A DNA stretch of 64,000 nucleotides, taken from NCBI GenBank assembly GCA_024276275.1, contig JAJRXM010000020.1, positions 3,231-67,230 of the forward strand. The letters are read 5' to 3'. Source of the DNA: Candidatus Zixiibacteriota bacterium. GTDB taxonomy: Bacteria > Zixibacteria > MSB-5A5 > GN15 > FEB-12. Numbering within the stretch: position 1 is the stretch's first letter; each line of letters opens with the position of its first letter. The notes under the pieces were generated by a model. It was not told the DNA's origin and ran no database searches. It worked only from the letters and a program-made list of their open reading frames with translations. Shown in pieces: positions 5,040 to 48,585 of this stretch. Both the position numbers and the translations under genes were made by a program.

Positions 5040-5295
5040 CAAATCCTCCAAGAATTTGTTTTGAGCCGGCTAAGTTATTGTTATAATTTCTTTTACTGAT
5101 TTCCTATTTCTTTAGTTACGGCTTTAAGACAAACCTATAATAAAAAAGATTAATAAAATTTGACTTTTTACCTAATTAGTTCTGGGAATAGATAAATGCC
5201 TACATATCTTTGGAAGAAAAAAAGGGTGAATATGCTGTGTTGTCTGTTTTAATGCTTTAAGCAATGAAAATTCTAAGCCGGGTGCCTGTTGCTAA

Positions 5296-5330: not shown

Positions 5331-5897
5331 TTATTCGGTATCTTCTTTTTCGTCATGTAGTGATTTTTCGGTATTATACGGAATCGAATAACGGTCGCAA
5401 AAAGCTTTTAATGTCGCTTCACTTTTTTCAATCCATTGAAACAATGAATCCTGTTGCTCCCCCTCAATAAGACGACCCCAATGCATAATACGGTAACTCA
5501 ATAAAGGCATCTCACCTTCTTCAACCTCCTCTTTCATTTCATGTAGAATCTCTAAAAGTGATTCTTTGGTTTTAAAAGGAAAGCCGTTAGTAAAATCAAG
5601 ATGTTCTAGACCTTCATCTATATGAGATTTTATAAAAGAACTTACTCCCGGTATATTAAAATACCACGGTTCTTTTGTTTGGGTTGAATGACAATCATAA
5701 CAGGAATACTCAAGCATCGGCTTTATCTTTTGAAATCCTTTATTGATGATAGCATAAAGAGAATCCTGTTCAGCTTTCATTTTATTGATTTCAGCTTCAG
5801 GAGTTACATCTTTTGGTACTGCTGAGTAACTAATTTGTGTATTTATAATTATACAAATTATAAAAGTAGCAATAACAATTCTTTTGATTGAAAACAT
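5331..5897 (-). CDS. Haem-binding-domain protein (single CxxCH), secreted
   Basis: Signal peptide present. CYDCHSTQTKEPWYFNIPGVSSFIKSHIDEGLEHLDF matches my memory of the bacterial Haem_bd domain (CxxCH followed by PWY...P). Confidence 0.6.
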   Translation of the reverse strand: MFSIKRIVIATFIICIIINTQISYSAVPKDVTPEAEINKMKAEQDSLYAIINKGFQKIKPMLEYSCYDCHSTQTKEPWYFNIPGVSSFIKSHIDEGLEHLDFTNGFPFKTKESLLEILHEMKEEVEEGEMPLLSYRIMHWGRLIEGEQQDSLFQWIEKSEATLKAFCDRYSIPYNTEKSLHDEKEDTE

Positions 5898-6827
5898 TTA
5901 CATATCTCCTTCTTTAATTTTTGAAATAAATCCATTTGCTTTATCTATCATAGTTTTTGACTTTTCTATAGTACAATTAAATTTTTTCATAACAAGAGCA
6001 ATTTTAACAGACCCGTTTGCCGAAAGTAAAAGCTTGTCAGCCTCTTCAAATGTTATATCTAATAGATCTATCAATGTTTTTCTAGAACGAGCAGATAGTT
6101 TTTTTGAGGTTGCCTGTAAATCAACCATCCGATTTCCATACGTTTTCCCGAGCAAAACCATTGCAGTAGTCGAAATCATATTTAACACCAACTTTTGAGC
6201 CGTACCTGATTTCATCCTTGTAGACCCGGTAATAACTTCAGGACCGACCGGCAGTTCGATAAGAAAATCTACAAACGACCGATTATCGTTTAAATCCCAT
6301 TTGTTGCAAATTACAAAAGCTGTCGTACATTTTATCGAATGTGCATACGATAGACCGCTTAATGTGTAAGGTGTCCTTCGTGAGGCAGCAATCCCGATTA
6401 CCATGTCATTATTATGTAATTTATGTTTTTGCAAATCATCAATTGCCGCTTTTGTGTTATCTTCAACACCTTCTTTGGAAAGAACAAGTGTTTCATATCC
6501 ACCGGCAATGACACCGATTATTTGGTCTCGCTCAGAGCCAAAAGTAGGAGGACATTCAGCAGCATCTAAAACACCCAGTCTTCCTGATGTTCCCGCTCCG
6601 ATATAAAAAATTCGTCCGTTATTTCGAATAGTTTTGGCAAATTGTTCTGCCGTTTTAGCGATAACGTCAATTTGTGATTTAACTACATCGGCAACAGTTT
6701 TATCTTCATTGTTGATTATTTGAAGAATTTCAGATGCCGACTTTTTATCTATATCTAATGATTTGCTGTTTACTTGTTCAGTTGCAAGCGTATCCAGAGT
6801 TTTTATGATTTCTTGAAATTCATTCAT
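5898..6827 (-). CDS. murQ: N-acetylmuramic acid 6-phosphate etherase
   Basis: SIS-domain motifs GRIFYIGAGTSGRLGVLDAAECPPTFG and GSTRMKSGTAQKLVLNMISTTAMVLLGKTYGNRMVDL. Confidence 0.9.
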   Translation of the reverse strand: MNEFQEIIKTLDTLATEQVNSKSLDIDKKSASEILQIINNEDKTVADVVKSQIDVIAKTAEQFAKTIRNNGRIFYIGAGTSGRLGVLDAAECPPTFGSERDQIIGVIAGGYETLVLSKEGVEDNTKAAIDDLQKHKLHNNDMVIGIAASRRTPYTLSGLSYAHSIKCTTAFVICNKWDLNDNRSFVDFLIELPVGPEVITGSTRMKSGTAQKLVLNMISTTAMVLLGKTYGNRMVDLQATSKKLSARSRKTLIDLLDITFEEADKLLLSANGSVKIALVMKKFNCTIEKSKTMIDKANGFISKIKEGDM

Positions 6828-14041: not shown

Positions 14042-14078
14042 CTAAATTATGGTTTACTTTCAATTTATGATTTCAAAA

Positions 14079-14612
14079 ATGCATATAACCGGAGCCTCAG
14101 GGTCCGGCACAACCACATTGGGTAAAGCTCTTGCTCAAAAATATAAATTTGTTCAATTAGATTCTGACAACTATTTCTGGCTTCCGACAAATCCGCCATA
14201 TCAGAAGATACGAAAAAATCCTGAACGGCAAGCCTTACTTAATTCAGACATGCTCAAATATCCAAATTGGGTTTCAACCGGTTCGTTATGCAGTTGGAGA
14301 GATTTTGCTTTGCCATATTTTGACTTGGTTATTTTTCTTTTTATACCTCAAGAGTTAAGAATCAAAAGATTAATCGAAAGAGAAAATATTCGCTCACCAG
14401 AGTCATTTATAGAGGGTACTGTTCGGGCAAAACAGTTCAATGAATTTATAGACTGGGCAAAACAATATGATACGGGAGGTCTTGAAGTTCGTTCTTTATA
14501 TATGCATAAGGAATGGCTCAAAAAATTAAGTTGTCCTGTCTTAAACATCGAGGGAGAGCTGACAGTTGATGAATCAGTTAAAATAGTAGAGAATTTTATA
14601 ATAGAATTATAG
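14079..14612 (+). CDS. P-loop NTPase / adenylate-kinase-like small kinase
   Basis: MHITGASGSGTTTLGKALA is a Walker A motif right at the N-terminus. About 177 aa, the size and layout of AAA_18/FlaR-like kinases. Confidence 0.6.
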   Translation: MHITGASGSGTTTLGKALAQKYKFVQLDSDNYFWLPTNPPYQKIRKNPERQALLNSDMLKYPNWVSTGSLCSWRDFALPYFDLVIFLFIPQELRIKRLIERENIRSPESFIEGTVRAKQFNEFIDWAKQYDTGGLEVRSLYMHKEWLKKLSCPVLNIEGELTVDESVKIVENFIIEL

Positions 14613-14786
14613 AAAAATAGATACGGTTCAAGTAGAATAGTAAACAGGTGGAAACAGACCCCGACAACGAATTTACCAATACCTAAAATGCCTATCCTAC
14701 AATTCCCTTGATTTTTTCCTCTATCTAAAGTACTTTCTAACCATATTTTAAACAGACAATAAATATATAATAGAAAACAAAAAAGT

Positions 14787-16976
14787 ATGTCTATATCTAA
14801 GCCGACAGTTTCAACTCCTTATATCAGTACTCAATTGATATTAGTTAGTTTTGTCATGCTTTTTACCGAAATTGCGCTTATTAGGTGGCTTTCTACAGAA
14901 GCACGTATTTTTTCTTATGTAAACAACCTTGTGTTGCTTTCATGTTTTTTGGGAATCGGATTGGGAGCTTTTTATTCCGCCCGAAAAGTGTATCTTTCCC
15001 TTTTAGGTTTTGGTCTGTCTTTGCAGATATTTTTAATTTGGGTACCGATAAGTTTTTCAATTCAAGGACAATCTTTACATCCGTTCCGAGATATTCCTCT
15101 ACTTTTAAGTTCGTTCACAGATTCCGTAATATGGTATGAGTCAGATATTAACCTAACTATCTTCTTAACAGTCTTAGGCATAACTACTACCATGTTCATT
15201 TTTGCTGTCATCTTGTTTACATTCATTCCTCTCGGACAACTTTTAGGAAAACTACTCGATGATCACCCAAATACTATCAAAGCATACTCTTTGAATGTAC
15301 TGGCAAGTATCATCGGTGTTTGGGCATTCAGTATTTGTTCATTTTTATATACACCCTCTTGGTTATGGTTTGCAATTTCTCTGCTAAGTATATCATCAAT
15401 GCTCCTATTTAAGTCTTACCGTTCCAAAAAAATGTATACTTCGCTCGGATTACTTGCCACTATGGTTCTCTTGTTGGCATTCTTTCCGGGTAAAAAAACG
15501 GATTTGTTAAAGACAGTTTGGTCTCCTTATCAAAAGCTGGAACTTTATCCACAGTTTCTTCTGAATAGTGATATTCAACGAGGTTATTTGTTAAATGTAA
15601 ACAACGTCGGCTATATGAGTATGCTTGACCTTTCCGATAGTATCATGCTTGAACATCCGAATGTGTTTAGTATTGACCAAAGAAGTTTTTCCCAGTACGA
15701 CCTTCCATATCTTTTGAAAAAAAATCCTGATAATGTTTTAATCCTTGGTGCCGGAGCCGGAAATGATGCTTCAGGTGCTTTGAGAAACTCAGCAAAATCT
15801 GTCGATGCGGTAGAAATTGATCCCGGTATTTATAAACTTGGAAAAAAATATCATCCCGAACATCCGTACAGTAATCCGAAGGTGCATGTGTATGTTGATG
15901 ATACCCGTTCTTTTTTAAAACGTACCGATAAACAATATGATTTAATTTCTTTCGGTTTGCTTGATGCCCATACACTCTCAAGTTCTTATAACAATATGCG
16001 GATTGATCATTACGTGTACACTTTGGAAAGTTTCTTAGAGGCAAAGTCCCGATTGAAAAAGGACGGTATCCTTACAATTGCCTTTGAAGCAAGACGACCA
16101 TGGATACAACAGAGACTTTTCAATTTGTTAGAAGAAGCATTTGGGATTCCCCCTGAAGTGATTGTGTATCCACACAGTATTTTTGGCTGGGGGGGAAGTA
16201 TGTTTGTCACGGCGATTGATTCTACTACGCTACATTCAGCTCTCAATTCTGACCCGCTTGTAAAGCGTTTTATCTCAATGTATCGAAAAGATAAAAATCA
16301 TGCTCCTCCCGATGAAGATAAAATAAAACTTACCGTTGATGACTGGCCGTATCTCTATCTTGAAAAGCCGTCGATACCGAAACTGCACTTGAGTATAATG
16401 GCGATTCTGGTTATTCTAATTCTAGTCGGTAAAAATGTTGTCTTTAGAAAAGGTGTCCAACTTGATTATCACTTTTTCTTTTTAGGCACAGCATTTCTCC
16501 TGTTGGAATTTCAGAATATCAGCAAATCGTCTCTTTTATTCGGTTCCACCTGGCTGGTAAATTCATTTGTTATTACAGGTATTTTACTTCTTATATTATT
16601 AGCAAATTATGTCGTAGCAACTTGGAAAATTAATAATATTCGTCCGATTTACATTCTGCTTATTGTCTCATCACTGATAATTTATTTCATACCGCTTGAT
16701 ATTTTCAGTGGTCTCAGTTATTGGACCAGGTCTATTGTTGTATCTATAATGCTTAATATCCCTATTTTTTTTGCAGGTATGATATTTATTATATCATTTA
16801 AAAAGACTGAATCCAAAAACCTGGCCTTTGGCTCTAATCTATTTGGGGCTGTAGTCGGGGGAGTCTTAGAGTCGGTATCATTTATAGTGGGGATAAATGC
16901 TTTACTTCTTATAGTTGTCTTAAGTTATCTTTTATCATATCTCTTTATAAAAAAATCAACATCTTTAAGTTCATAA
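14787..16976 (+). CDS. Membrane-embedded spermidine-synthase-like (class I methyltransferase-fold) protein
   Basis: 729 aa. About 7 N-terminal and 5 C-terminal TM helices flank VLILGAGAGNDASGAL...VDAVEIDPGI...YVDDTRSFL...YDLISFGLLD (SpeE-like fold). Confidence 0.7.
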   Translation: MSISKPTVSTPYISTQLILVSFVMLFTEIALIRWLSTEARIFSYVNNLVLLSCFLGIGLGAFYSARKVYLSLLGFGLSLQIFLIWVPISFSIQGQSLHPFRDIPLLLSSFTDSVIWYESDINLTIFLTVLGITTTMFIFAVILFTFIPLGQLLGKLLDDHPNTIKAYSLNVLASIIGVWAFSICSFLYTPSWLWFAISLLSISSMLLFKSYRSKKMYTSLGLLATMVLLLAFFPGKKTDLLKTVWSPYQKLELYPQFLLNSDIQRGYLLNVNNVGYMSMLDLSDSIMLEHPNVFSIDQRSFSQYDLPYLLKKNPDNVLILGAGAGNDASGALRNSAKSVDAVEIDPGIYKLGKKYHPEHPYSNPKVHVYVDDTRSFLKRTDKQYDLISFGLLDAHTLSSSYNNMRIDHYVYTLESFLEAKSRLKKDGILTIAFEARRPWIQQRLFNLLEEAFGIPPEVIVYPHSIFGWGGSMFVTAIDSTTLHSALNSDPLVKRFISMYRKDKNHAPPDEDKIKLTVDDWPYLYLEKPSIPKLHLSIMAILVILILVGKNVVFRKGVQLDYHFFFLGTAFLLLEFQNISKSSLLFGSTWLVNSFVITGILLLILLANYVVATWKINNIRPIYILLIVSSLIIYFIPLDIFSGLSYWTRSIVVSIMLNIPIFFAGMIFIISFKKTESKNLAFGSNLFGAVVGGVLESVSFIVGINALLLIVVLSYLLSYLFIKKSTSLSS

Positions 16977-17005
16977 GTTTTTCTGAAATATTATTCCTTC
17001 TTCTT

Positions 17006-17065
17006 AAAAACAATATCAACATATACCAAATAGTTGCTATCGCCAACACAAAGAAAATCAGAAAA
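17006..17065. repeat. 60-bp direct repeat, copy A (non-coding duplicate of a gene 3' end)
   Basis: 58/60 identical to 17710-17769. Followed immediately by GTAGG at 17066. Confidence 0.85.
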
Positions 17066-17210
17066 GTAGGTTGGGTTCATAACGAACACCGATAGGTGGA
17101 TGCTGTACCCGACAAAAATACCGTCATTGCGAATCCGTCTAGGCGGATAGGGAGTGTGGCACACTCATGTTTAAAATTGACAAACATATAAAGTCTTTCG
17201 TATTTACAAT

Positions 17211-17588
17211 ATGAGAAAACAATATCACTTCCAACCATCTGAAAAGGGGTTTTACGCTTGGGATGTTGACCGTTTGGTTGAGCTCAGTAAAGACTTACCT
17301 ATTATCGAAATAGATATTTCTGGTATTAAAGAATTAGATGAAGCTTTCTGGTATGGCGATAAAAATGATATACCAACTTGCCGTTCAATAGTAAGTCATG
17401 TCAGATTAATAAATGATTCAAGTTTAGATTACCCCATTATTTTATCTGCTGAAAATTTTGTAATGGATGGAATGCATCGCGTATGTAAAGCATTATTAAA
17501 TAATATCTCAAAAATAAAAGCAGTCAAATTCAAAACAACTCCTTCACCTGATTATAAAGATGTTCGTCCTGATGATTTACAGTATTAA
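17211..17588 (+). CDS. Small ParB/sulfiredoxin-fold domain protein
   Basis: 125 aa. ILSAENFVMDGMHRVCKALL contains the DGxHR motif of ParB N-terminal-domain proteins. Confidence 0.5.
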   Translation: MRKQYHFQPSEKGFYAWDVDRLVELSKDLPIIEIDISGIKELDEAFWYGDKNDIPTCRSIVSHVRLINDSSLDYPIILSAENFVMDGMHRVCKALLNNISKIKAVKFKTTPSPDYKDVRPDDLQY

Positions 17589-17600
17589 CTTATATACAAA

Positions 17601-17628
17601 ACGGAACCGTTAAAAGATTCCGTCCTAC
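17601..17628 (-). repeat. REP-like element (GTAGG + hairpin)
   Basis: Minus strand GTAGG (17628-17624), then stem acggaa/ttccgt. Confidence 0.3.
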
Positions 17629-17693
17629 TTAACTTGCTTGTTTCACTACATATGAACAGACAGGAATGTCTGTTCTGCCGAGTGGTTTGATGT

Positions 17694-18707
17694 TTACTTC
17701 TGTTTTCCAAAAAACAATTTCAACATATACCAAATAGTTGCTATCGCCAGCACAAAGAAAATCAGAAAAATCACAAACGGTGACCATTGCGGATTAACTG
17801 CCATCGTAGACGGATCATGAAAATCAATCAATGCCAGTTTCCGTACTATATGTCGGATGGTTACCATCGAAACAAATGAGACAGCAAGCATAATGCTTGA
17901 AACAGTAAATTTCTTTTTAAAGAGGAAATACAAAGAACCTAAAGAAAGTACAAGAGAGACTAAAACAAGCCATATCGCCGGTGATTTCATAAACGGTTTC
18001 ATAAGTTCACCCAGCCCCATCATGTATACCAACCCGGTAGCAATCGAGGCAACCATTCCCCACAGATAAAACTGTTTTCCAACCGCAAATGCTGGCTCGT
18101 TTTTTCGTCCAAAGAGTGCAACAAAAAATCCACCGACAGTAACCGCACCGGTAAGCATGTGTAGCCACCGAAAGAGATACGAGTTTAAATCCGGATTTAT
18201 AATCGTCCCACCTTGGTTCTGTGCATAGAGCAGTTTATACAAATCAGGTTTTTCTGCCAATGCAAACACCGATGTATATATATAGGAAACATATAACAAA
18301 CAGACAAAAGCAATAGATAGATATATCTTTTGTCTGCTGTCAGTTTTTTTAGAAAAAGCAGATGCATACAATGCATAGTATGCGATAATTACAACTGCAA
18401 CGACAAGAAGCCAGTACCACCCCGAAACAATTGCTGATGAATAAATCTGTTGAGGATAGACGAGCTGCACAAACAAAAGAGGAGCCACACCAAATGAAAC
18501 AGTCATAGCCATCGCATTCGGAAAGAGCTTGATAAACTTTTCTACAATTGGATTATTCCATTTATCTTCAAATTTTCCAAAGAGTAAAATTATAATTCCA
18601 CCGAACATAAAGTTCATCGAAATCAAATGAAGTGATAATGTTACAATACTGAGAGTATCAATTATCCACAAAGGAACCGAAAGAAAATTAGAATCAGGAA
18701 GCATCAT
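17694..18707 (-). CDS. Polytopic membrane protein, probable partner subunit of the bd-like/cytochrome c protein
   Basis: 337 aa, about 9 TM helices. Its start overlaps the upstream stop (ATGA at 18704-18707). No motif I can name. Confidence 0.5.
   Translation of the reverse strand: MMLPDSNFLSVPLWIIDTLSIVTLSLHLISMNFMFGGIIILLFGKFEDKWNNPIVEKFIKLFPNAMAMTVSFGVAPLLFVQLVYPQQIYSSAIVSGWYWLLVVAVVIIAYYALYASAFSKKTDSRQKIYLSIAFVCLLYVSYIYTSVFALAEKPDLYKLLYAQNQGGTIINPDLNSYLFRWLHMLTGAVTVGGFFVALFGRKNEPAFAVGKQFYLWGMVASIATGLVYMMGLGELMKPFMKSPAIWLVLVSLVLSLGSLYFLFKKKFTVSSIMLAVSFVSMVTIRHIVRKLALIDFHDPSTMAVNPQWSPFVIFLIFFVLAIATIWYMLKLFFGKQK
17710..17769. repeat. 60-bp direct repeat, copy B (encodes the C-terminal helix of the 337-aa membrane protein)
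   Basis: On the reverse strand this copy encodes ...FLIFFVLAIATIWYMLKLFF. Confidence 0.85.
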
Positions 18708-20215
18708 TCAGTCTCCTTCTTATTTAGTGACATAATATAATCAATTAAAGCTTTCCGTTCTTGAGCATCTCCTGTAAATTCTGGCATTTCTTCGGCAAAT
18801 TCTCCCGCCATATCCAAAATATCCCCGATATCTTCTTCGGTTATTTCCAGCAGAGATTCTGATTTGTCATTGAACCCGTTAAAAACATGGCATTTCCCAC
18901 ATCGAACATCGTATACCTTTTTCCCCAATGCGGTACCTTCAAGATTATATATTTCAGAAAGATGTCGTTTATCTATTTGCGTATAAATATGCGAGGCAAT
19001 CATCTGAGCTTCATCTTCAGCACCGACAAACGGAGGCATATTTCCTCTGATAGCTTGAGTTCCCATAATTATTCCTGCAATAAAAGCTTCATCAGTACCG
19101 TCAAAGGCTTGTTTTAACGGTTTGTACCCATCCATAGTATGACAAGAACGACAGGCACGCCTGAACAAATCAGCAGGCTTGTCGGACGTTTTAAACTGTA
19201 TATACTCATGTAATCCTTCTTCCTGATATGTTTCAGCTTTGGCAACATCAATACCGTTGGCATACATATAATTAGTAATTACATACGGTTTCCGTACAGA
19301 CTCCCGCATCCACTCATATTCTCCAAACCAGGAAAGAGCAAATATCATAGCTAAAGTTCCAACAACGATATTGTATCTTTTCGGAATCAAAAATCCAAAA
19401 ACTATTATGACAACCCCAAGCAGCATAGCATTGATATATGATGCGTTCATAGCAACAACAGGTGTCAGTTTGGATTCTAAGGCAGCATCGTAAATCTCTT
19501 TAGGTATAGTCGAAATATACCAGACAAGAGTCGGCATCATAATTGCCAATCCAACAATTGCCCAGAGCGAATTAAAACGAATAAGTCTTTTTTTGAATTC
19601 ATCAGCCTTTAACCGCGATGCCACAAACAGTGCATAAACCCCCGCAAGCATTATACAGATACCGGTGCGAAGCCAAAGTGATGACCAAAATGTCGGGTTA
19701 AAGAATCCGTCCCAAAAGTTACCGGTAGTAATCCAATCACCGGGGGAGAGCATGAAAGTAATAATACCATTAATAATAAAGAGTGACATCCATGCCGAGA
19801 TAAAATAAATCCATCCTATAATAAGATGATTTTTCGGTGAGAGTTTTTTCCATCCGTAGAAATAGAGCAAAGCGGCACAAATTTCGATAGTGAAAAATGC
19901 CCATTCAGCAGCCCACGCCCAAACAAAGTTATGTATCAGAATTTCAGTCGCAGCCGGGTTTAGCAGTCCGATAATAAACCAAATACCAACACCTGTTAAT
20001 GCTCCAAAAACAACCGAGACTAGTACAAAAAACTTACTTAGTTTTTCTAAAAACTGTAGTTTCAGTAAGTAATTTTTTTTACGGGCGATAGTTTCGGCAA
20101 CGACCAAATACAACCCGCCGCCGATTGCAAAATGTGCTATAAAAACATGGATTACAGCAATAAATGCCATGATAATGCCGTATCCGATTTCAATATCCCA
20201 AAAAGGGTAACTCAT
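18704..20215 (-). CDS. Cytochrome-bd (CydA)-like membrane domain fused to a dihaem cytochrome c domain
   Basis: 503 aa. The N-terminal ~330 aa has ~8 TM helices, with helix 1 IAVIHVFIAHFAIGGGLY resembling the CydA helix-1 His region. The C-terminal soluble part carries CRSCH and CGKCH plus GNMPPF. Confidence 0.55.
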   Translation of the reverse strand: MSYPFWDIEIGYGIIMAFIAVIHVFIAHFAIGGGLYLVVAETIARKKNYLLKLQFLEKLSKFFVLVSVVFGALTGVGIWFIIGLLNPAATEILIHNFVWAWAAEWAFFTIEICAALLYFYGWKKLSPKNHLIIGWIYFISAWMSLFIINGIITFMLSPGDWITTGNFWDGFFNPTFWSSLWLRTGICIMLAGVYALFVASRLKADEFKKRLIRFNSLWAIVGLAIMMPTLVWYISTIPKEIYDAALESKLTPVVAMNASYINAMLLGVVIIVFGFLIPKRYNIVVGTLAMIFALSWFGEYEWMRESVRKPYVITNYMYANGIDVAKAETYQEEGLHEYIQFKTSDKPADLFRRACRSCHTMDGYKPLKQAFDGTDEAFIAGIIMGTQAIRGNMPPFVGAEDEAQMIASHIYTQIDKRHLSEIYNLEGTALGKKVYDVRCGKCHVFNGFNDKSESLLEITEEDIGDILDMAGEFAEEMPEFTGDAQERKALIDYIMSLNKKETE

Positions 20216-20322: not shown

Positions 20323-20349
20323 GTAGGTCGAAACCCCTGCGGTTTCGAC
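20323..20349 (+). repeat. REP-like element (GTAGG + hairpin)
   Basis: GTAGG, then the 9-bp stem gtcgaaacc/ggtttcgac. On the minus strand it is followed by a T-run, so it may also terminate the 169-aa gene. Confidence 0.45.
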
Positions 20350-37108: not shown

Positions 37109-39562
37109 ATGCCCCGTCAGAAACAAATATCATTGAAAAAACATAAAGAATTGACCGCAAAAGAGCTTGATTATCAGATAAATTATGCTCCCAAAAAAAT
37201 TAAATCCTCGGATTCTATTAATCCCTGTTTGGAGATAATCGGTCAGGAAAATGCTATAAATTCAATAAAACTTGGCTTAAATATTGAATCTACCGGCTAT
37301 AACATCTTTGTGACCGGACCGGCCGGAACAGGTCGAACATCTACAATTCAACATCTTTTAGAACAACTTGACCTTAAGGAACCGGATTTAAAAGATATCT
37401 GTTATGTACATAATTTTAAAAATGAAGATGCCCCAAAAGTCCTGATTTTCAAAGCAGGTGACGGTTGCCGTTTTAAGAAAGACATGGGCTATCTTATATC
37501 ATCAATACGTAAAGCTATTCCCAAAATTTTTATATCAGAAGATTTCAAAGATCGCCAAAATAGAATAATACGAGAATATGAAGGAAGACAAAAAGAGCTG
37601 ATAAATAAGTTTGAGGAAAAACTGACCGATACCGGCTTTGTTATGGTACAGATACAAGCAGGAGCCGGTGTGCGAAATGAAATACAACCTCTTATAGATG
37701 AAGAGCCTTCATCGCTGGAAAAACTTGAACGACTTTCAAAAGAGGGAAAATTTTCTCCCTCCCGTCTTGAAGAACTTGGGCGAGTTTGGGATTCTTTAAG
37801 AAGAGAATTTGATGTTGTAACAGTAGAATCAAAAAAACTCTCTGACAAATTAGATGATGCACTCGCGAAACTGGAATTGACAATCGTATCACCGCTTGTG
37901 ATGGATAAGATAAATCTGTTAAAGAAAAGATATCCGATTGAAAAATTACTAATTTATTTAGATGAAGTAGAGGAAGCACTTCTTGATGATCTCGATAGAT
38001 TTCGTGAGGCACAACCACGACGCGGCGAGGAAGAAGCACCACCTTTTCGTAAGCGTGAACCGTTTGAAGAGTTTTCAGTAAATGTTATCCTAGATAATTC
38101 AACAACAGAAACAATCCCGATAATTTCAGAAAAGTCACCTTCATATAAAAACATATTCGGTTCGTTGGAACGTGTTGTTGACAGATTTGGATACTGGCGT
38201 ACAGATTTCTCCCGTATTTTTTCAGGTTCTCTTTTACAAGCATCGGGTGGGTTTTATATTTTAAACGCTCTTGATCTACTTTCAGAGCAGGGTATGTGGA
38301 TTCAACTCAAGCGTGCTTTAAAAAATCAGGAAATACAAATTGCAGGATATGATCCGTTTTATATGATGGCAGGTGCAGGAATTAAGCCGGAACCTATACC
38401 TTTAAATGTTAAAGTTGTTTTAATTGGTGAACCTCATATTTATAATCTTCTATTGCGAATGGACCCGGATTTCAAAAAAGTTTTTAAGGTAAAAGCAGAA
38501 TTTGACAACACAATGAAAGCTGTGAATAGTAATTTTAATTATTATTATCAATTTATTAAACGAGTAATACTAGATGAACAATTAAAAACTTTTGATATAT
38601 CAGGTCTACAGGCAGTTACCGAGTATGGCATGAAACTCGCAGGCACCCGTGATAAGATTACAACACAATTTACCGGTATTGCCGATATAGTTCGTGAGGC
38701 TGACTATTGTGCGGCTCATAAAAAGAGAAAAATAGTTTCGCGGGCAGATGTATATAATGCAATTGCTAGTCAAAAATCACGTGTGAATCTTCTCGAAGGT
38801 AAAATTCAGGAAATGTTCGATAAAGAAACTATTATGGTATCTTTATCAGGAAAAGCAGTCGGTCAAATAAACGGTCTTTCTGTTTATTCTTTAGGTGAAC
38901 ATTCATTCGGACGACCTACCCGCATTACTGTTAATACATCTCTCGGTAAAGAAGGAGTAATTAACATAGAACGTGAATGTGATCTATCAGGTCCGATACA
39001 TAACAAAGGAGTTTTAGTTTTATCAGGATATTTACGAATGATGTTTGCACAGGATAAACCTCTTGCCATGGCAGCATCAATTTCGTTTGAACAATCTTAC
39101 TCGGGAGTTGACGGTGATTCGGCATCTTCGACAGAAATTTATGCAATTCTTTCATCTTTAGGGAATATTCCGATACATCAGGGAATTGCTGTAACAGGTT
39201 CTGTTAATCAAAAAGGTGAGATTCAGCCTATTGGCGGTGTCAATTATAAGATAGAAGGATACTTTGATGTTTGTAAAAGTAAACGATTAACAGGTAAACA
39301 GGGTGTTATAATACCGCATCAAAATGTAAACGAACTTATGTTACGTCCCGATGTCATCGAAGCGGTTAAACAAAAAAAGTTTCATATCTATCCGGTGAAA
39401 ACTATTGTTGACGGTATAGAGATTCTTACCGGTTTACCTGGGGGAAAACGTTTACGGAGTGTAAAATTTACAAACGGTTCTGTCATGCAGATTGTTGATG
39501 ATAAACTTCGTCAAATGGCATTAGACTTACAATTTTTTGGAAGAAAAGATAATAATAAATAA
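37109..39562 (+). CDS. Lon-like S16 serine protease with AAA-like domain (LonC/Lon-insertion type), Walker A Lys replaced by Arg
   Basis: 817 aa. NIFVTGPAGTGRTSTIQ is a P-loop with R in the Lys position. The C-terminal Lon protease domain has the Ser site VDGDSASS and the Lys site PIGGVNYKIEG. Confidence 0.8.
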   Translation: MPRQKQISLKKHKELTAKELDYQINYAPKKIKSSDSINPCLEIIGQENAINSIKLGLNIESTGYNIFVTGPAGTGRTSTIQHLLEQLDLKEPDLKDICYVHNFKNEDAPKVLIFKAGDGCRFKKDMGYLISSIRKAIPKIFISEDFKDRQNRIIREYEGRQKELINKFEEKLTDTGFVMVQIQAGAGVRNEIQPLIDEEPSSLEKLERLSKEGKFSPSRLEELGRVWDSLRREFDVVTVESKKLSDKLDDALAKLELTIVSPLVMDKINLLKKRYPIEKLLIYLDEVEEALLDDLDRFREAQPRRGEEEAPPFRKREPFEEFSVNVILDNSTTETIPIISEKSPSYKNIFGSLERVVDRFGYWRTDFSRIFSGSLLQASGGFYILNALDLLSEQGMWIQLKRALKNQEIQIAGYDPFYMMAGAGIKPEPIPLNVKVVLIGEPHIYNLLLRMDPDFKKVFKVKAEFDNTMKAVNSNFNYYYQFIKRVILDEQLKTFDISGLQAVTEYGMKLAGTRDKITTQFTGIADIVREADYCAAHKKRKIVSRADVYNAIASQKSRVNLLEGKIQEMFDKETIMVSLSGKAVGQINGLSVYSLGEHSFGRPTRITVNTSLGKEGVINIERECDLSGPIHNKGVLVLSGYLRMMFAQDKPLAMAASISFEQSYSGVDGDSASSTEIYAILSSLGNIPIHQGIAVTGSVNQKGEIQPIGGVNYKIEGYFDVCKSKRLTGKQGVIIPHQNVNELMLRPDVIEAVKQKKFHIYPVKTIVDGIEILTGLPGGKRLRSVKFTNGSVMQIVDDKLRQMALDLQFFGRKDNNK

Positions 39563-39618: not shown

Positions 39619-39763
39619 ATTTACAATAATAATTGTTTACATCTGACATTAAATGAATTATGTATTTATAAATAAAACATAATAAAACTTTATTTTTTTC
39701 TTGACTTAAATAAAAAAAAAATCGTTTTTTAAATGCGAACAAACAAAAACAGGAGAATGTTCA

Positions 39764-40087
39764 ATGCGCAAAGCTAAAAAAACAACCAGAAAGAAAGTCG
39801 CAAAGAAAAAAGTTGCGAAGAAAAAAGTAGCCAAGAAAAAAGCTGCAAAGAAAAAAGCTGCAAAGAAAAAAGCTGCAAAGAAAAAAGTCGCAAAGAAAAA
39901 AGTTGCGAAGAAAAAAGTCGCTAAGAAAAAAGCTGCCAAGAAAAAAGTAGCTAAAAAGAAAGTCGCAAAGAAAAAAGTTGCGAAGAAAAAAGCTCGTTGT
40001 GCCGGTAAAACAAAAGACGGTAAAAGATGTAAACGTTTTACAGACGGCAGAGGTAAATTCTGTTCAGCGCATAAGAAACGCAGATAG
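39764..40087 (+). CDS. Lysine/alanine-rich histone-H1-like basic protein with C-terminal Cys3-His motif
   Basis: 107 aa. 13 consecutive AKKK[VA] pentapeptides, then C-x9-C-x10-C-x2-H ([26 protein letters not shown]). Confidence 0.7.
39797..39991 (+). repeat. 13 tandem 15-bp coding repeats
   Basis: Units of gyn-gcn-aag-aaa-aaa. The 30-nt block gtcgcaaagaaaaaagttgcgaagaaaaaa occurs three times (starting 39797, 39887, 39962). Confidence 0.9.
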
Positions 40088-40149: not shown

Positions 40150-43100
40150 TTAAAAATCAGCACCGGCAGAAAAATATGATGTTGTTCTAGGCGATATTGA
40201 ATTCATGTCTGTCGACCATGCAATATCATATCTTAAAAGTAAGAAACCTAAATTAAGTCTTAACCCGGTACCAAAACCCATTTTAATATCTTGTAGCCTA
40301 TTAACACCACCCACAGAAGTTCCGCCTTTAAAATTAGATCCCGTCCAGGCTGTTCCAATATCTGAAAAGAGTACTCCTTGGATTCTGCTAAATACTAAAG
40401 GAAGCGGGAATCTCATAGCAAAATAATCTATTAATGGAAAACGAAATTCAGCATTGATTAATCCATATCTATCGCCGGCCAGTTCATAATATGGTACACC
40501 GCGCAAAGGAGTTACAACATCGGCAAAATAAAGGTTCTTGAGATCATATACCGATGCATCGTATACTCTTCTTCCTATCCAGTTTGTAGTCCCACCCAAG
40601 AAATACAGCTTCGGAGTTGTTCCGAATGATGCTCCACTTGAAAATCTAAAGGCAAAGGAAAAAGAATTTTTAATATGCCAATATTTTCTATAATCAAATT
40701 CAACAGATGTAAATTGAATATCTTTTGAATCAAAGATATTTATACCGGAACTCAATGATAACTTTGCCCGTCTTCCGTTCACCGGTCCGGTTAATCCCCA
40801 TACTACATTATCAGAAATATATGAAAACTCTGCGACGGTAACTTTTGAATTCTTTTTAAATCCGTAAGTAGGGCTATATGTGCTAATAGCATCTGATGTT
40901 AAATAATTGTATTGTCGGTCAATAAAGTATTGTGAAACTGTTAGATCAACTCTTTTGAAGGTTGAAAATGGGTATCTGGCAAGACCTTGGAACCCATAAA
41001 AACGATCAGAGAAAAACACATTATTTACAAATGAATAAAACCTTTTTGAATGAAAAAGACCAAACCCGATATTCGTGCGTTTTTTATTATAGAAATATAA
41101 TATCTGTATATTGGACTGGTCGATAGTATTCACCAAGTCAGTCGCAAAGTAGAACTGATGATTTCCTAGGTAATCTGTCAAAATAAAATATGCTTGGCCC
41201 TGAAAACCATAAAATGTACTATATCCTGGTGTGGCATGCATGAAATCAGGTGTAAACTTCGGTTTATATTTTTTAATTTCATAGTTACCGTCAAGTCCCG
41301 GCCCGGGGCGTTCATCAAAATACTTTGGTTCATTGACCGGTTTACTGTTTTGTGAAGAATCTATATCGTTCGGAATTCCGATAAAAAGAGAATCAAAATT
41401 ATTATCAGTTTCTTCAGATACAAACACAAACCCTTCATCATATACACCGGTTTCAGAGGTAATCAATGAATCAGCAGGGTCTTCTGTATGTTCTGCTAAA
41501 AGTGTATCAGTTACCGTAGAATCATTTACGGTTGTGTCTGTTCCAAGAGTGTCTTCTAACAAAGCAATTTCATCAGGAGTTTTTAATATATTATAATCAC
41601 CGTTAACAAAAGCAGTGTTTGCCAAGACATTGTTTTCACCTTTCGGTAACAATTTTTCAAGCAAGAAGATATCAAATGCACCTTTATTAACAACCGAATA
41701 AGCAATTTTGCGTCCTCTAGGTCCCCAGGAAATTGATCGCACGCCTGTTAAGACGTCTGTAATCGGATAGATTGCCGATGAATCCAAATAAGCGATATAG
41801 ATATTATCGATTCCGTTTCTATTAGAAATAAAAGCTACTTTGGTACCATCAGGAGAAACAGAGGGAAAGATATTTGGACCTTGCCCGACATCAAGTTCTG
41901 TAACTACATCTTTTATATTGATATTAATTCTAAAAATATTATAAAATCCATATTTAAAATCACCGGGTAAATATGCCCCCTGTGAAACATATATATTTTT
42001 TTCCCATTCTGCCATTTGTGATTTTGAATGAGGTCTGTCAGATGAAAAAATCAACTCTTCAGAATTTGGAAGCCAACTTGGTTCTTTGTCGTCGTAGCGG
42101 TCATGAGTAATTTGTGTTAATTTTTCAGTTTCGATTTCATATATATATAAATCTCTGCGGTGTCCTTGTAATGCTGAGAATGCAATTTTTTTATTATCCG
42201 GTGACCATTTAGGTGAAAGGATATTATAAAAATTAAATTTTTTCTTTTGATAAATTTTATCTCTATTTAAGTCATAAAACATTAGAGTCGGATCACCGTT
42301 TGATTTTGCTACAAAAACCATTTTATCCCCGTCAGGAGAAAAAGACATTCCCGATACAAATGAATGAAGCGATTCTAAATCACCCGAACGAGAACCCTTG
42401 ACTAATTTTTTTATCTGAAATCCTTTATCTGAATCAATTAATACAATTTCGGTGTAATCGGACTTGTCGGTAAAAATTGCTATCTTGGTTCCATCGGGAT
42501 GGAATTCAGGTTTTTCATTAAAATACGACCCGTCTTTGCGGGCATGGGTAAGCTGTTTAGAAAATTCATCCGCTTCTTCACGCAAAGCAATCTCAGGCCA
42601 GTAACGGCGTTTCATCTCTTTTGAAAAACCTTTCCATAGTTTTTCTTCAGTAATTCCGAGAACCTCAACAAGGGCTTTATTCAGCGTTAGATATATCTTC
42701 CCTTTTTTTAAAATCTCACCCAGTTTATCCTCACCGTAAGTTTCGGCAATATATTTTATCATTGCCTGCCCTTGTTTGTAGGCTAAGAATCCTCCCAAAT
42801 AAGCAGGAGGTGCCAGATAATTATTTATTGTCGCATCGCGAACAAACATATCTGAAACATAATCCCAGCCATGTCTTGATGAATACTCGGCAAATCCTTC
42901 CGCATACCAAAGAGGTAGATTAAATAGTTTACCTCGGGAAATAAGCGATGAAAACGATTTACCGTAGATTAAATCATATACAAAAGCGTGTGTCAGCTCG
43001 TGATGCAGCACATGTCGGAACTCTTCATACGAACCGTTAAACGGTATAACAATTCTGTTTTTAAATGCTTCGGTAAAACCGCCGACCCCTTCGGGCAGAA

Positions 43101-43410
43101 GCCCCTGTGTAATATTTGTCTGTTGAAAATCATTGTGAGAGTTATAAACAAAAACCGGAATCTCTTTTTGAATTTTATAGTTTAGTTCTTTGGCAATTTC
43201 TACGTATGCTGATTCCATGACAGTAGCCGTAAACTTAGCCGTTTCATACGCATCTTCATAGAAATAAATGTCAAAATGCCTGGTTTGAATGTAACTCCAG
43301 TCAAAGTCTTTATAGCGAACTTTGTTTTTACCGAAATATGTTTCTTGAGCAGAGGCGATTGATGTCATTAAAATCAGAAGAGTTATAAAGAATAAAACAG
43401 CTTTTTTCAT
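40150..43410 (-). CDS. Large outer-membrane fusion protein: HExxH metallopeptidase-like domain + PD40/TolB-like beta-propeller + Omp85-type beta-barrel
   Basis: 1086 aa. Signal peptide, then VLHHELTHAFVYD. Six propeller-type motifs (FHPDGTKIAIF, FSPDGDKMVFV, WSPDNKKIAFS, WLPNSEELIFS, VSPDGTKVAFI, WGPRGRKIAYS). An acidic Thr/Asp linker. The C-terminal ~370 aa has a beta-strand pattern ending ...FSAGADF. Confidence 0.65.
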   Translation of the reverse strand: MKKAVLFFITLLILMTSIASAQETYFGKNKVRYKDFDWSYIQTRHFDIYFYEDAYETAKFTATVMESAYVEIAKELNYKIQKEIPVFVYNSHNDFQQTNITQGLLPEGVGGFTEAFKNRIVIPFNGSYEEFRHVLHHELTHAFVYDLIYGKSFSSLISRGKLFNLPLWYAEGFAEYSSRHGWDYVSDMFVRDATINNYLAPPAYLGGFLAYKQGQAMIKYIAETYGEDKLGEILKKGKIYLTLNKALVEVLGITEEKLWKGFSKEMKRRYWPEIALREEADEFSKQLTHARKDGSYFNEKPEFHPDGTKIAIFTDKSDYTEIVLIDSDKGFQIKKLVKGSRSGDLESLHSFVSGMSFSPDGDKMVFVAKSNGDPTLMFYDLNRDKIYQKKKFNFYNILSPKWSPDNKKIAFSALQGHRRDLYIYEIETEKLTQITHDRYDDKEPSWLPNSEELIFSSDRPHSKSQMAEWEKNIYVSQGAYLPGDFKYGFYNIFRININIKDVVTELDVGQGPNIFPSVSPDGTKVAFISNRNGIDNIYIAYLDSSAIYPITDVLTGVRSISWGPRGRKIAYSVVNKGAFDIFLLEKLLPKGENNVLANTAFVNGDYNILKTPDEIALLEDTLGTDTTVNDSTVTDTLLAEHTEDPADSLITSETGVYDEGFVFVSEETDNNFDSLFIGIPNDIDSSQNSKPVNEPKYFDERPGPGLDGNYEIKKYKPKFTPDFMHATPGYSTFYGFQGQAYFILTDYLGNHQFYFATDLVNTIDQSNIQILYFYNKKRTNIGFGLFHSKRFYSFVNNVFFSDRFYGFQGLARYPFSTFKRVDLTVSQYFIDRQYNYLTSDAISTYSPTYGFKKNSKVTVAEFSYISDNVVWGLTGPVNGRRAKLSLSSGINIFDSKDIQFTSVEFDYRKYWHIKNSFSFAFRFSSGASFGTTPKLYFLGGTTNWIGRRVYDASVYDLKNLYFADVVTPLRGVPYYELAGDRYGLINAEFRFPLIDYFAMRFPLPLVFSRIQGVLFSDIGTAWTGSNFKGGTSVGGVNRLQDIKMGFGTGLRLNLGFLLLRYDIAWSTDMNSISPRTTSYFSAGADF

Positions 43411-45580: not shown

Positions 45581-46130
45581 TTGTTTAGAAATAACTCAAA
45601 CAGATTAAAAGATTTTGATTATGCCAATAACGGAGGGTATTTCATAACGATTTGTACCCAAAATAGTGTGCATATCTTTGGCGAAATTAAAGATGAAAAG
45701 ATGATATTAAACGATGTTGGGAGAATGGTTGAAAAATGGTGGTTAGAATTATCAAATAAGTTTAATAACATTAAGTTAGATGAATTTACTATTATGCCAA
45801 ATCATGTACATGGAATAATTATACTTGTAGGGGCAGACCTGCGTGTCTGCCCAAATGAAAAGGGCGAACACACAGGTTCGCCCCTACAGGAGATAATGCT
45901 AATGAATATTTTAGAAATGTAAAAAACAAGAATTGGAAACCGGTTGAAAAAAACTATGGCAACGGGGATATTACGACCATATTATTCGTGAAGAAAAAGA
46001 ACTATCAAATATTCGTACATATATTCAAAACAATCCTCTAAAATGGCATCTTGATATTGAAAACAGAAGTAATAATCGAAAAATTGAGTTGTTAGAATAT
46101 TATAAAGATATATATGAAAATAAATTGTAG
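45581..46130 (+). pseudogene. REP-associated tyrosine transposase (RayT / IS200-like Y1 HUH), degraded
   Basis: N-terminal YFITICTQNSVHIFG and the HUH motif MPNHVHGIIIL are in frame 1. NEYFRNVKNKNWKPVEK is in a second frame. LWQRGYYDHIIREEKELSNIRTYIQNNPLKWHLD is in a third, after the A7 run at 45947-45953. The usual segment between GSPLQ and NEY appears shortened. Confidence 0.7.
45827..45887. repeat. Inverted pair of GTAG-type REP hairpins (BIME-like), inside the RayT-like reading frame
   Basis: GTAGGGGCAGACCTGCGTGTCTGCCC on the plus strand and GTAGGGGCGAACCTGTGTGTTCGCCC on the minus strand, tail to tail, with spacer aaatgaaaa. Confidence 0.7.
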
Positions 46131-46185
46131 GCACAGACCTGCGTGTCTGCCCAAATAAAAAGGACGGTTTGCGAACCGCCCAAAA
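46127..46185 (+). repeat. Second copy of the REP unit, just 3' of the RayT-like gene
   Basis: GTAGGCACAGACCTGCGTGTCTGCCCAAATAAAAAGG is 34/37 identical to 45827-45863. It is followed by a different hairpin, ggacggtt/gaaccgcc. Confidence 0.6.
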
Positions 46186-46190
46186 CAATT

Positions 46191-46712
46191 TCAATCTTTC
46201 AATTTTGCGTATATATAACGATCGTACATTTTGCCGTTTATACATAAATAATTTTTCAATAACCCTTCCCGTTCAAACCGAGCTTTTTCCAAAATTTTCC
46301 AGGAAGCAATATTTTTTGGGTGAACATGGGCGTAGATTCGTACCAATTTAATTTTATCAAAACAATAACCGGTAAACATCTGTATTGCCTCAAGCATAAT
46401 CCCTTTTCCCCAAAAAGGTTTTGCCAGCCAGTATCCTAATTCGCCGTGTTGATGGGTCTCGTTGATAGAGTTTAAATCAATCATCCCGATAATCTCTTGT
46501 GTCTCTTTATTTTCTATACCGAAATGCAACGATGTCATAGATTTACGGTCATTTATACACATTGTAATAAAGTCTACTGCATTTTGAATTGTATACGGAT
46601 GAGGAATAACAGTAAACTGAGAAATTTCTCTCTCAGAACAATACTTAGCAATGGAGTCAGCATCTTCAAGAGTTGTATAGCGTAGATTTATTTTGTCCCC
46701 GATTATCTTCAT
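46191..46712 (-). CDS. GNAT-family N-acetyltransferase (RimJ/RimL-like)
   Basis: 173 aa. ELGYWLAKPFWGKGIMLEA (acetyl-CoA site region) and HPKNIASWKILEKARFEREG. Confidence 0.8.
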   Translation of the reverse strand: MKIIGDKINLRYTTLEDADSIAKYCSEREISQFTVIPHPYTIQNAVDFITMCINDRKSMTSLHFGIENKETQEIIGMIDLNSINETHQHGELGYWLAKPFWGKGIMLEAIQMFTGYCFDKIKLVRIYAHVHPKNIASWKILEKARFEREGLLKNYLCINGKMYDRYIYAKLKD

Positions 46713-47540: not shown

Positions 47541-48062
47541 CTAATCTTTCAATTTGGCGTACAAATAATGGTCATGCATTGTACCGCCTACACAGAAATG
47601 ATTTCTTAACAACCCTTCACGCTCAAACCCTGCTTTTTCCAAAACTTTCCATGAACCGATATTATCAGGCTGTACATGGGCATATATTCGTTCTAACTGC
47701 ATTTCATTAAGACAGAATGAGGTTAGAATATTGATTGCATCAAGCATAATTCCTTGACCCCAAAAAGGTTTTGCCAGCCAATATCCCAGCTCACCTCGAA
47801 AATGAATTTTGTTAATAGAGTTTAAACCGATCATCCCTATTATTTCTTTGGTTTCACAATTTTCAATACCGCAATGTAACGATGTCATAGATTTTCGATC
47901 TTCAATACACATAGTAATAAAGTCTACCGCATCTTGATGAGTGTAGGGGAAAGGGATAAAGGTAAATTCGGAAATTTCTTTATCGGCACAATATTTAGCG
48001 ATAGAATCGGCATCATCAAGTGTCGGGTAACGTAGATTTATTTTTTGTCCGTTTAGTTGCAT
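47541..48062 (-). CDS. GNAT-family N-acetyltransferase, paralogue of 46191-46712
   Basis: From ATG 48062 (MQLNGQKINLRY...). About 70 percent identical to the other GNAT by manual alignment (46 mismatches over about 164 positions). Confidence 0.8.
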   Translation of the reverse strand: MQLNGQKINLRYPTLDDADSIAKYCADKEISEFTFIPFPYTHQDAVDFITMCIEDRKSMTSLHCGIENCETKEIIGMIGLNSINKIHFRGELGYWLAKPFWGQGIMLDAINILTSFCLNEMQLERIYAHVQPDNIGSWKVLEKAGFEREGLLRNHFCVGGTMHDHYLYAKLKD

Positions 48063-48093
48063 AGTATTCACTTTCAATTTATTTGTGAGGAAC

Positions 48094-48585
48094 TTACATT
48101 TTATTTGACGGTTTTTTCTTGTAGTACACAGAAATATATCCATCCTCAAAATTATCAATCAAATATAATGAAGTGCCTTCATCGTCGACATAAAATTCAA
48201 TTAGTTGGTCGTACCATCCATTTATTATAATAGCATTATAGCTTTCATCGTCAAAAACCGAAACTCTGCTATCGATATAATAATCTTTTACTTCATAAAT
48301 TTTATCATTACGAATTACAGAGTATTTAAAATTATCATTAATAACTATAGTTTTTGTTTCCTCTTCAGTTTCAGGAAACAGATAATCATTACTTATTTCA
48401 TTGTACGACTCAACCCATTCCCACTTTCCATAGATTGACGGCTCACTTTCAATAATTTCTTCATAACTATCATCAACAATTTCTACTTCTTTAATAATTT
48501 CTTCCATTCGTATAAGGCCACAAGAGATAAAAAAGAAGCTGATAAACAGAAAAAGTATTAATATTTTCAAATTATAACCCCTCAA
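48094..48585 (-). CDS. Small lipoprotein of unknown function
   Basis: Lipobox FFFISCG. Shares GKWEWVES with GKWQWVSS of the next gene. Confidence 0.5.
   Translation of the reverse strand: MRGYNLKILILFLFISFFFISCGLIRMEEIIKEVEIVDDSYEEIIESEPSIYGKWEWVESYNEISNDYLFPETEEETKTIVINDNFKYSVIRNDKIYEVKDYYIDSRVSVFDDESYNAIIINGWYDQLIEFYVDDEGTSLYLIDNFEDGYISVYYKKKPSNKM

Follow-up and report, generated by a model that had tools for sequence, protein, structure and literature searches.

The question raised by one short region of a 64,000-nucleotide stretch of DNA from a Candidatus Zixiibacteriota bacterium (contig JAJRXM010000020.1; the whole stretch is termed 'the window' below, and positions are counted from its first nucleotide) is whether a long direct repeat that duplicates the 3' end of a gene marks the boundaries of a mobile element. 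The repeat in question, 60 bp in length, duplicates the end of a gene for a 337-aa membrane protein (here termed 'M') and brackets 644 bp of DNA holding an intact open reading frame of 125 aa ('ORF125'). An earlier note, made from the sequence alone, had taken the two copies for the footprint of site-specific integration (an attL/attR pair). Comparison with related genomes points elsewhere: the repeat is most readily understood as the scar of a recombination event, of a known kind, in a variable spacer between core genes, and not as the edge of a new mobile element. Two versions of the spacer that separates M from its convergent neighbour, a kinase-like gene ('K'), were probably stacked upon one another by recombination, and the copy of the repeat that lies away from M is, on this account, an orphaned stub.

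The two copies, at 17006-17065 (copy A) and 17710-17769 (copy B), are identical at 58 of 60 positions, with mismatches at 17015 and 17046, just as the earlier note had it; a 29-mer core occurs exactly twice in the window and in none of 100 shuffled versions, and no further copy of the 60-mer or of the ~700-bp unit was found in the 64 kb. Copy B, which in full spans 17694..17769 on the minus strand, lies inside the reading frame of M (17694..18707, minus strand), whose product ends in ...FLIFFVLAIATIWYMLKLFFGKQK. It specifies the last hydrophobic helix and the tail ...WYMLKLFFGKQK (GKQK before the stop codon), and it matches a C-terminus that is conserved in all orthologues, which agrees with its initial description as the last transmembrane helix of M.

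Copy A was initially described as a non-coding relic just past the spermidine-synthase-like gene ('speE') that converges on M. That description holds, and the relic proves longer than first stated: it extends over 16991..17065 (minus strand), or about 25 codons together with a relic stop at 16991-16993 that lies 14 nt past the stop of speE. When a 1-nt gap is allowed (corresponding to a 1-nt deletion in copy A), some 75 nt can be aligned with the 3' ends of orthologous M genes as far as their stop codons, and BLAST matches copy A to the M 3' ends of three relatives (L033, L029 and L012) in alignments that start at those stops. The tail of copy A is scrambled; within it the heptamer GGAATAA, common to L033, L012, L029 and L013, has been kept, where copy B has AAGTAA instead. 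Because the alignment reaches the orthologous stops and this ancestral heptamer is retained, copy A is a former complete 3' end of M that is now a non-coding relic, and copy B is the working end.

The differences between the two copies are not spread evenly. They are clustered in the last ~15-20 nt (2 of 60 positions in the core versus 8 of 21 in the tail; Fisher p ~2e-4), where copy B is close to the TGGAAAACAG of the relatives and copy A reads AAGAAGAAG-GAATAA. At the same time, both copies carry derived states (ATA and ATT codons, and TTGTTTTT) that are found in no relative. A mosaic of this kind, combining shared derived states with divergent tails, is what would be expected had the exchange taken place where the 60-mer passes into the tail.

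Between the copies, hairpins with a GTAGG tag were said to stand at both inner edges of the insert, and they are present there, at 17066 on the plus strand and at 17628 on the minus strand. Each displays the traits of a GTAG-tagged repetitive extragenic palindromic (REP) sequence, namely a 5' GTAG tag, a GC-rich imperfect palindrome and an extragenic position. The first ('REP_a', 17066..17117) is predicted to fold with the joint 17065/17066 at its foot, and is followed by the remainder of a conserved spacer block ('block c', 17118..17184, which includes ..CGTCATTGCGAATCCG..GGAGTGTGGCACACTCATGTTTAAAATTGACAA) and then by ORF125 (17211..17588, plus strand). The second ('REP_b', 17601..17628, minus strand) has the form GTAGGACGGAATC-N7-GGTTCCGT and is likewise predicted to fold, as is a 9-bp hairpin ('h1', 17654..17675) that lies between REP_b and the stop codon of M. 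A degenerate version of the REP_a and c block ('REP_a'/c'', 14613..14700) is also found right after the stop codon of K. Read from left to right, the overall order is therefore K, REP_a'c', speE, copy A, REP_a, c, ORF125, REP_b, h1 and finally copy B within M.

The decisive point concerns the origin of these edges, which, when aligned with the corresponding DNA of relatives, read as native K-M spacer and not as the ends of an element. The segment 17066-17175 (REP_a and most of block c) is colinear with L014 7130-7229, the ~100 nt that abut the stop codon of K in that genome, with 75% identity across all 110 nt and 86% within the 52-nt core of REP_a; in both sequences the alignment stops at ...CCTAC, the TAG stop of the L014 kinase gene lying inside the GTAGG tag. 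REP_a by itself is matched at 86-91% by L014 7179-7229, L012 5230-5274 and L032 5150-5193, of which the copies in L012 and L032 (87-91%) are located downstream of M. Block c is colinear with L014 7130-7178, and parts of it abut K in L012 (6577-6645) and in L029 (~5395-5454), while REP_b matches a hairpin found just after the stop of M in L014, L029 and L013. The K-adjacent block of REP_a and c (5227-5281 and 6577-6645 in L012) has been conserved although the proteins of those genomes are only 74-84% identical, and the REP_a-c or REP_b sequences occur in the K-M spacers of L012, L013, L014, L029 and L032, all of which are devoid of ORF125.

The order outward from M (REP_b, then c, REP_a and, in L014, the stop of K) is moreover the same in the insert as in the whole L014 spacer. 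Since order and alignments both match, the insert resembles an entire K-M spacer from a related genome, with ORF125 lying within. The K-proximal block is present twice in the window, once as REP_a' after the stop of the window's own K and once as REP_a at 17066, as is expected for two stacked spacers. The degenerate block aligns to REP_a of the window, of L014 and of L012; its 22-nt core is 77% identical to 17094-17115, and REP_a' and REP_a are 70-77% identical. Within the REP_a stem a compensatory change distinguishes two of the relatives (GTCGGG..CCCGAC in L014 versus GTAGGG..CCCTAC in L012), and a scan of 14500-17900 against Rfam returned chance-level matches only. The K-adjacent hairpin and its ~65-nt block might serve as a structured terminator or encode a small RNA, or they might be a REP.

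The duplicated arrangement is peculiar to the lineage of the window. Seven relatives, with 74-78% identity in M, each possess a single copy of the 60-mer and have no ORF125 downstream of M; the two copies and the ParB-like gene (as ORF125 was first labelled) are accordingly not universal in relatives, the outcome that would have pointed to an ancient fixed duplication. Synteny around the site is kept among these genomes (ABC, UPF0014, cytochrome, M converging on K, which there encodes a 180-aa P-loop kinase, then sigma70, zf-HC2 and MMPL), and the convergent orientation of M and K was found in L012, L014, L029 and L030. What lies between the two genes varies: 54 nt in L030, 215 nt in L014, 224 nt in L029, 1483 nt with a GNAT gene in L012, K followed by 222 nt, speE, 187 nt and M in L033, and both speE and ORF125 in the window. 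The L033 locus (speE, 187 nt, M) serves as the 'empty site' that had been proposed as a check, at genus-level distance only (78% identity in M).

Within this clade, the K-M spacer has gained genes repeatedly. Within the spacer of L012, a 320-aa reading frame at 5509-6471 is located between REP_a and block c; it is GNAT-like by sequence inspection alone. The speE gene is found between K and M in the window and in L033 only, occupying the same position in both (L033 2010-4208; 84-85% identity), while in the genome of L030 its homologue is on another contig (L035 1196-3382, GCA_030590305.1). Because the context of that homologue is unrelated, speE has itself moved among these genomes and has come into the K-M spacer from elsewhere. 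Neither the GNAT insertion of L012 nor the speE gene of L033 is surrounded by flanking repeats.

How two spacers might have been stacked can be outlined from the anatomy. One version ('version S') would have consisted of K, the degenerate REP_a'c', speE and M, and the other ('version O') of K, REP_a-c, ORF125, REP_b, h1 and M. A single homologous exchange, within the conserved 60-nt block that M carries at its 3' end or beside it, would have been accompanied by a single illegitimate joint at 17065/17066, by which codon -25 of M was fused to the other spacer at its K-proximal end. Homology-facilitated illegitimate recombination (HFIR) or template switching on incoming DNA could have been the route, the switch falling where the 60-mer gives way to the tail; a Campbell-type single crossover with a circularised fragment could also have produced the same result. 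The former 3' end of M (copy A) would thereby have been pushed downstream as a non-coding stub while M kept a working end (copy B), and ORF125 would have been the cargo, not the agent, of the insertion. No extended homology is present at the joint. The sequence AGAAAA(A) is common to M (CAGAAAAA, 17763-17770, with AGAAAA at 17764-17769) and to the flank of the window's own K stop (TAGAAAAA, 14610-14617), and a microhomology of 6-7 nt at the joint is plausible provided that this flank was also present in the partner spacer.

Events of this type are documented. In HFIR and single-crossover integration, as described for Acinetobacter, Streptococcus pneumoniae, Pseudomonas stutzeri and Escherichia coli (PMC3240628), a first junction falls within a short homologous segment, a second shows no homology, the homologous locus ends up duplicated on either side of the incoming DNA, and no recombinase of an element takes part. 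The present locus resembles this, and its joint at 17065/17066 may be a junction of the second kind. Such an event also implies that the insert comes from the corresponding chromosomal region of a relative; here both non-coding edges are colinear with the K-M spacer of L014 and stop at its K stop codon. Single crossovers with circular molecules in E. coli duplicated 109-950 bp of the homologous locus, and duplication of the homologous segment was far commoner by that route than by classical HFIR (PMC3240628); the duplication in the window is shorter (60-75 bp versus 109-950 bp), and the event is here inferred from a single natural product. A second parallel is provided by the effector-immunity arrays of Rhs, contact-dependent inhibition and type VI secretion loci (PMC5361080), in which an incoming allele, homologous in its upstream part, brings a new 3' end and its cargo and the old end is shifted downstream as a non-coding stub; displacement with orphaned 3' gene ends left behind in type VI secretion and Rhs loci has been attributed to HFIR (PMC5361080). 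In contrast to those systems, no polymorphic toxin is involved here (M is not one), the very small stub has no immunity-like cargo, and the event looks like a one-off and not an array.

Several observations nevertheless weigh against the stacking of two spacers as described. The first is distance: no relative exceeds ~78% identity in M, and a search for a closer one (through genome contigs, metagenome contigs and 5.8 billion proteins) gave none above 76-78%. There is hence no strain-level empty site by which to set the polarity of the event. Version O (K-ORF125-M) was met in no genome found and a donor search yielded none, and K, M and the cytochrome gene, when compared in sliding windows, show no sign of a mosaic tract derived from a donor. 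REP_a and block c are reordered in L012, and a c-like block is on the other side of K in L030. The hairpin blocks partly behave like dispersed REPs, for which colinearity with L014 weighs less than it would for unique sequence. The tail changes in copy A (AAGAAGAAG), finally, could stem from later slippage.

With regard to polarity, we lean slightly towards a K-speE-M chromosome that received the ORF125 block, because K-speE-M is seen in L033 and K-ORF125-M was found in no genome. The reverse is unlikely, though far from fanciful: the resident arrangement would have been K-REP_a-c-ORF125-REP_b-M, and a 2.45-kb block (14613-17065) would have arrived from a K-speE-M relative, bringing REP_a'c' and speE along with 75 nt of the donor's M as a stub, with its homology anchor in K and its illegitimate joint at the boundary between the K stop and REP_a. 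The structure is symmetrical, and the anatomy as a whole is accommodated just as well. The mobility of speE among these genomes (it is located elsewhere in the L030 genome, on L035) speaks for this polarity, as does the greater similarity of REP_a-c, compared with REP_a'c', to the L012 and L014 sequences; two separate alignments also place the window's K no nearer to that of L033 (63-67% identity) than to its L012 or L014 counterparts. It would require, on the other hand, that copy A be derived from the donor, and copy A shares with copy B lineage-specific states that L033 lacks; the proposed resident arrangement, furthermore, has never been observed, and K-speE-M has.

The suggestion of the earlier note was that the 60-mers are attL and attR, so that the 704-bp unit would be a non-autonomous 'mini-element' acted upon by a tyrosine or serine recombinase from elsewhere. 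This now seems quite improbable. Integrative elements that use gene 3' ends (phages, integrative and conjugative elements, and genomic islands) do leave repeats that represent the 3' end of their target while the insert supplies a functional replacement, and the near-perfect 60-bp repeats and the replaced end of M both conform to that pattern; ORF125, in addition, has a lower G+C content at third codon positions (21%) than the neighbouring genes (30-36%), and it has distant homologues in phages. Against this stand the homology of both insert ends to the native K-M spacer of relatives that have no ORF125 and the small size of the insert, which holds a single unrelated gene in 644 bp. ORF125 is the only credible reading frame there, in accordance with the initial statement that the insert carries no recombinase, and none of the reading frames scanned between 177 and 29763 was found to contain an integrase or transposase domain. 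A recurring unit was equally sought and not found: the homologues of ORF125 are single genes without conserved flanks, and neither of the two contexts in which flanking repeats were looked for (L001 and L004) has any.

A further proposal in the earlier note invoked REP sequences and their associated tyrosine transposases (RAYTs). In the form considered here, the joint would have been made by a RAYT acting on the GTAG-tagged REP_a, through cleavage of single-stranded DNA and strand transfer at the foot of the hairpin. The joint does fall exactly at the first G of GTAGG (17066), with a C/T step on the bottom strand (..CCTAC/TTTTCT..); nothing else positive was found, and we give the idea little credence. 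GTAG-tagged REPs are a known superfamily (PMC3733652), and the TnpA-REP of E. coli cleaves at CT dinucleotides beside REPs (PMC3479197). Sites that combine GTAGG with a hairpin are enriched in the window, numbering 9 versus 2.2 in shuffled sequence, and those at the locus resemble the GTAG REPs of the RAYT literature (PMC3733652, PMC3479197) in their GTAG(G) tag, in their GC-rich imperfect palindrome and in their position downstream of convergent genes. They differ in that ~9 per 64 kb looks modest, in that the hairpin sequences are dissimilar, and in that they are also found at the locus in relatives without the insert. In L014, moreover, the same REP boundary is the stop codon of K and is equally explained as the end of a spacer, the coincidence of a given junction with a CT step is weak, and no RAYT gene was seen in the scanned part of the window. 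We know of no precedent for gene insertion driven by a RAYT.

More GTAGG-tagged, GC-rich hairpins stand at gene ends elsewhere in the window, at 45825-45866 and 46125-46166 and also at 20323, 29768, 45887 and 58999. One pair of such hairpins is 90% identical, its members lying 300 nt apart.

It is very improbable that the ~700-bp unit is a minimal hitchhiking cassette, which would carry the 60-mer of M, circularise, and enter M-bearing genomes through RecA (in Campbell fashion) or through a RAYT, with ORF125 promoting its own spread. Were that so, ORF125 might act as a nuclease or as a nucleotide-dependent factor, and might spread into convergent intergenic sites. Hardly credible at all is an origin by tandem duplication of a 704-bp segment followed by deletion, or by chimeric assembly of the metagenome: the derived states shared by copies A and B would suit a duplication within the genome, and the sequence does come from a single contig of a metagenome-assembled genome, but the former requires a second, precise deletion of one copy of ORF125 and leaves the divergent tails and the 70-77% identity between REP_a' and REP_a without explanation, while a de Bruijn misjoin requires a shared k-mer at 17065/17066, where only AGAAAA (6 nt) is common. 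A transposon or insertion sequence was rejected (there are no inverted repeats beyond GTAGG/CCTAC, the duplication measures 60-75 bp, and no transposase was found), as was an integron cassette, on anatomy (no attC-type R''/R' pair was noted).

ORF125 had been described as a 125-aa, DGxHR-containing protein of the ParB/Srx fold, and that description is upheld in part: the reading frame is intact, it contains an invariant MDGMHR motif, and its predicted fold is ParB/Srx-like, while no sequence model supports the assignment. Searches of ORF125 against Pfam and NCBIfam gave no match at E<=0.1 (and none for its 40 aligned homologues at E<=5), with PF02195 (ParBc) and related curated models likewise unmatched, and no match was found among sequences in the Protein Data Bank (PDB). 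Support comes from an AlphaFold model (pLDDT 87, pTM 0.80). When compared with the PDB by Foldseek, all 36 of its matches with E<1, and most of the others, belong to the ParB/Srx superfamily, at weak scores (best E 2.7e-3, TM 0.35-0.42); the structures retrieved include ParB N-domains, Noc, KorB, sulfiredoxin, SerK, SbnI and PadC. The predicted fold and the DGxHR-type motif at an equivalent loop recall the superfamily (ParB N-domain, Noc, KorB, sulfiredoxin, SerK/SbnI). ORF125 differs in that it has no Pfam ParBc match and no helix-turn-helix or dimerisation domain, is only 125 aa long, and belongs to a separate and very conserved family. The model thus supports a ParB/Srx-like assignment at the level of fold only, for which the label is reasonable, without establishing family membership.

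The family is large. A word-indexed search returned 4770 matches, and an exhaustive profile search 2303 clusters (at 50% identity) with E<=1e-3; almost all members are ~125 aa in length, and the best-scoring ones are ~60% identical across phyla. The nearest homologues (P0002, P0003 and P0006; 71-74% identity) are encoded beside ssb on Bacteroidota-like contigs, whose homology to the window is limited to the reading frame (73% DNA identity). Flanks are unrelated in the other contexts retrieved (L001, L004, L037-L041, L045, and L042 from the Paracoccus plasmid pAMI4), and no conserved neighbours were found in five other independent contexts. In all five, as in the window, the gene is the last before a convergently transcribed one. 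On pAMI4 the homologue follows oxyR-katG, and on the Bacteroidota-like contigs it comes after a partner gene of 114-119 aa, next to ssb. A few phages encode distant homologues (29-41% identity), one of them annotated as parB-like. Upstream of ORF125 itself, a scan for sigma-70 consensus sequences listed no site, and inspection by eye gave nothing convincing (the TTGACA at 17177 is separated by 22 nt from a TACAAT immediately before the ATG).

K (14049..14612, plus strand) encodes a kinase-like protein of 187 aa with a P-loop AAA_18 domain (Pfam) and is the conserved convergent neighbor of M in the relatives, while M is co-operonic with a gene (18704..20215) for a fusion of a cytochrome bd-I-like protein and a cytochrome c. 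The intervening speE gene (14787..16976, plus strand) specifies a 729-aa, membrane-anchored spermidine-synthase-like protein (PF01564), and the sequence proximal to its promoter, CCCTTGATTTTT.CCTCTATCTAAAGTA, is conserved between the window and L033. If transcription of speE reads through copy A (16977-17065, plus strand), the resulting 3' untranslated region would be complementary, at 58 of 60 positions, to the 3' coding end of the M mRNA, creating a potential for antisense pairing in trans between the two transcripts.

Elsewhere in the window, a gene for DprA (DNA recombination-mediator protein A, PF02481) is located at 800-1708 on the minus strand. With that gene the organism may have the capacity to process single-stranded DNA that enters the cell; its presence is compatible with DNA uptake by transformation, but proves nothing. 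Two other repeats lie far from the K-M spacer. A tandem array of a 15-nt unit (~18 copies, 66-84% identical to the reference copy) occupies 39746-40015, in the gap between reading frames 37109..39562 and 40150..43410, and a 300-nt direct repeat (46193-46492 versus 47543-47842, 75% identity) is contained in two same-strand reading frames, 46191..46712 and 47541..48158, which are probably paralogous genes.

The event at this locus is best read as an ordinary route of gene gain. It offers a clean natural example of a single accessory gene added between core genes without the machinery of a mobile element, and it illustrates that the duplication of a gene's 3' end in a long direct repeat does not by itself constitute evidence for site-specific integration. 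The corollary is chiefly one for annotation practice: repeats of this sort can mislead searches for att sites and genomic islands. For the uncultured phylum from which the window comes, the locus documents the turnover of intergenic spacers by recombination and opens no new mechanism. The ORF125 family, being large, highly conserved and unannotated, is a more promising lead than the repeat that drew attention to it.

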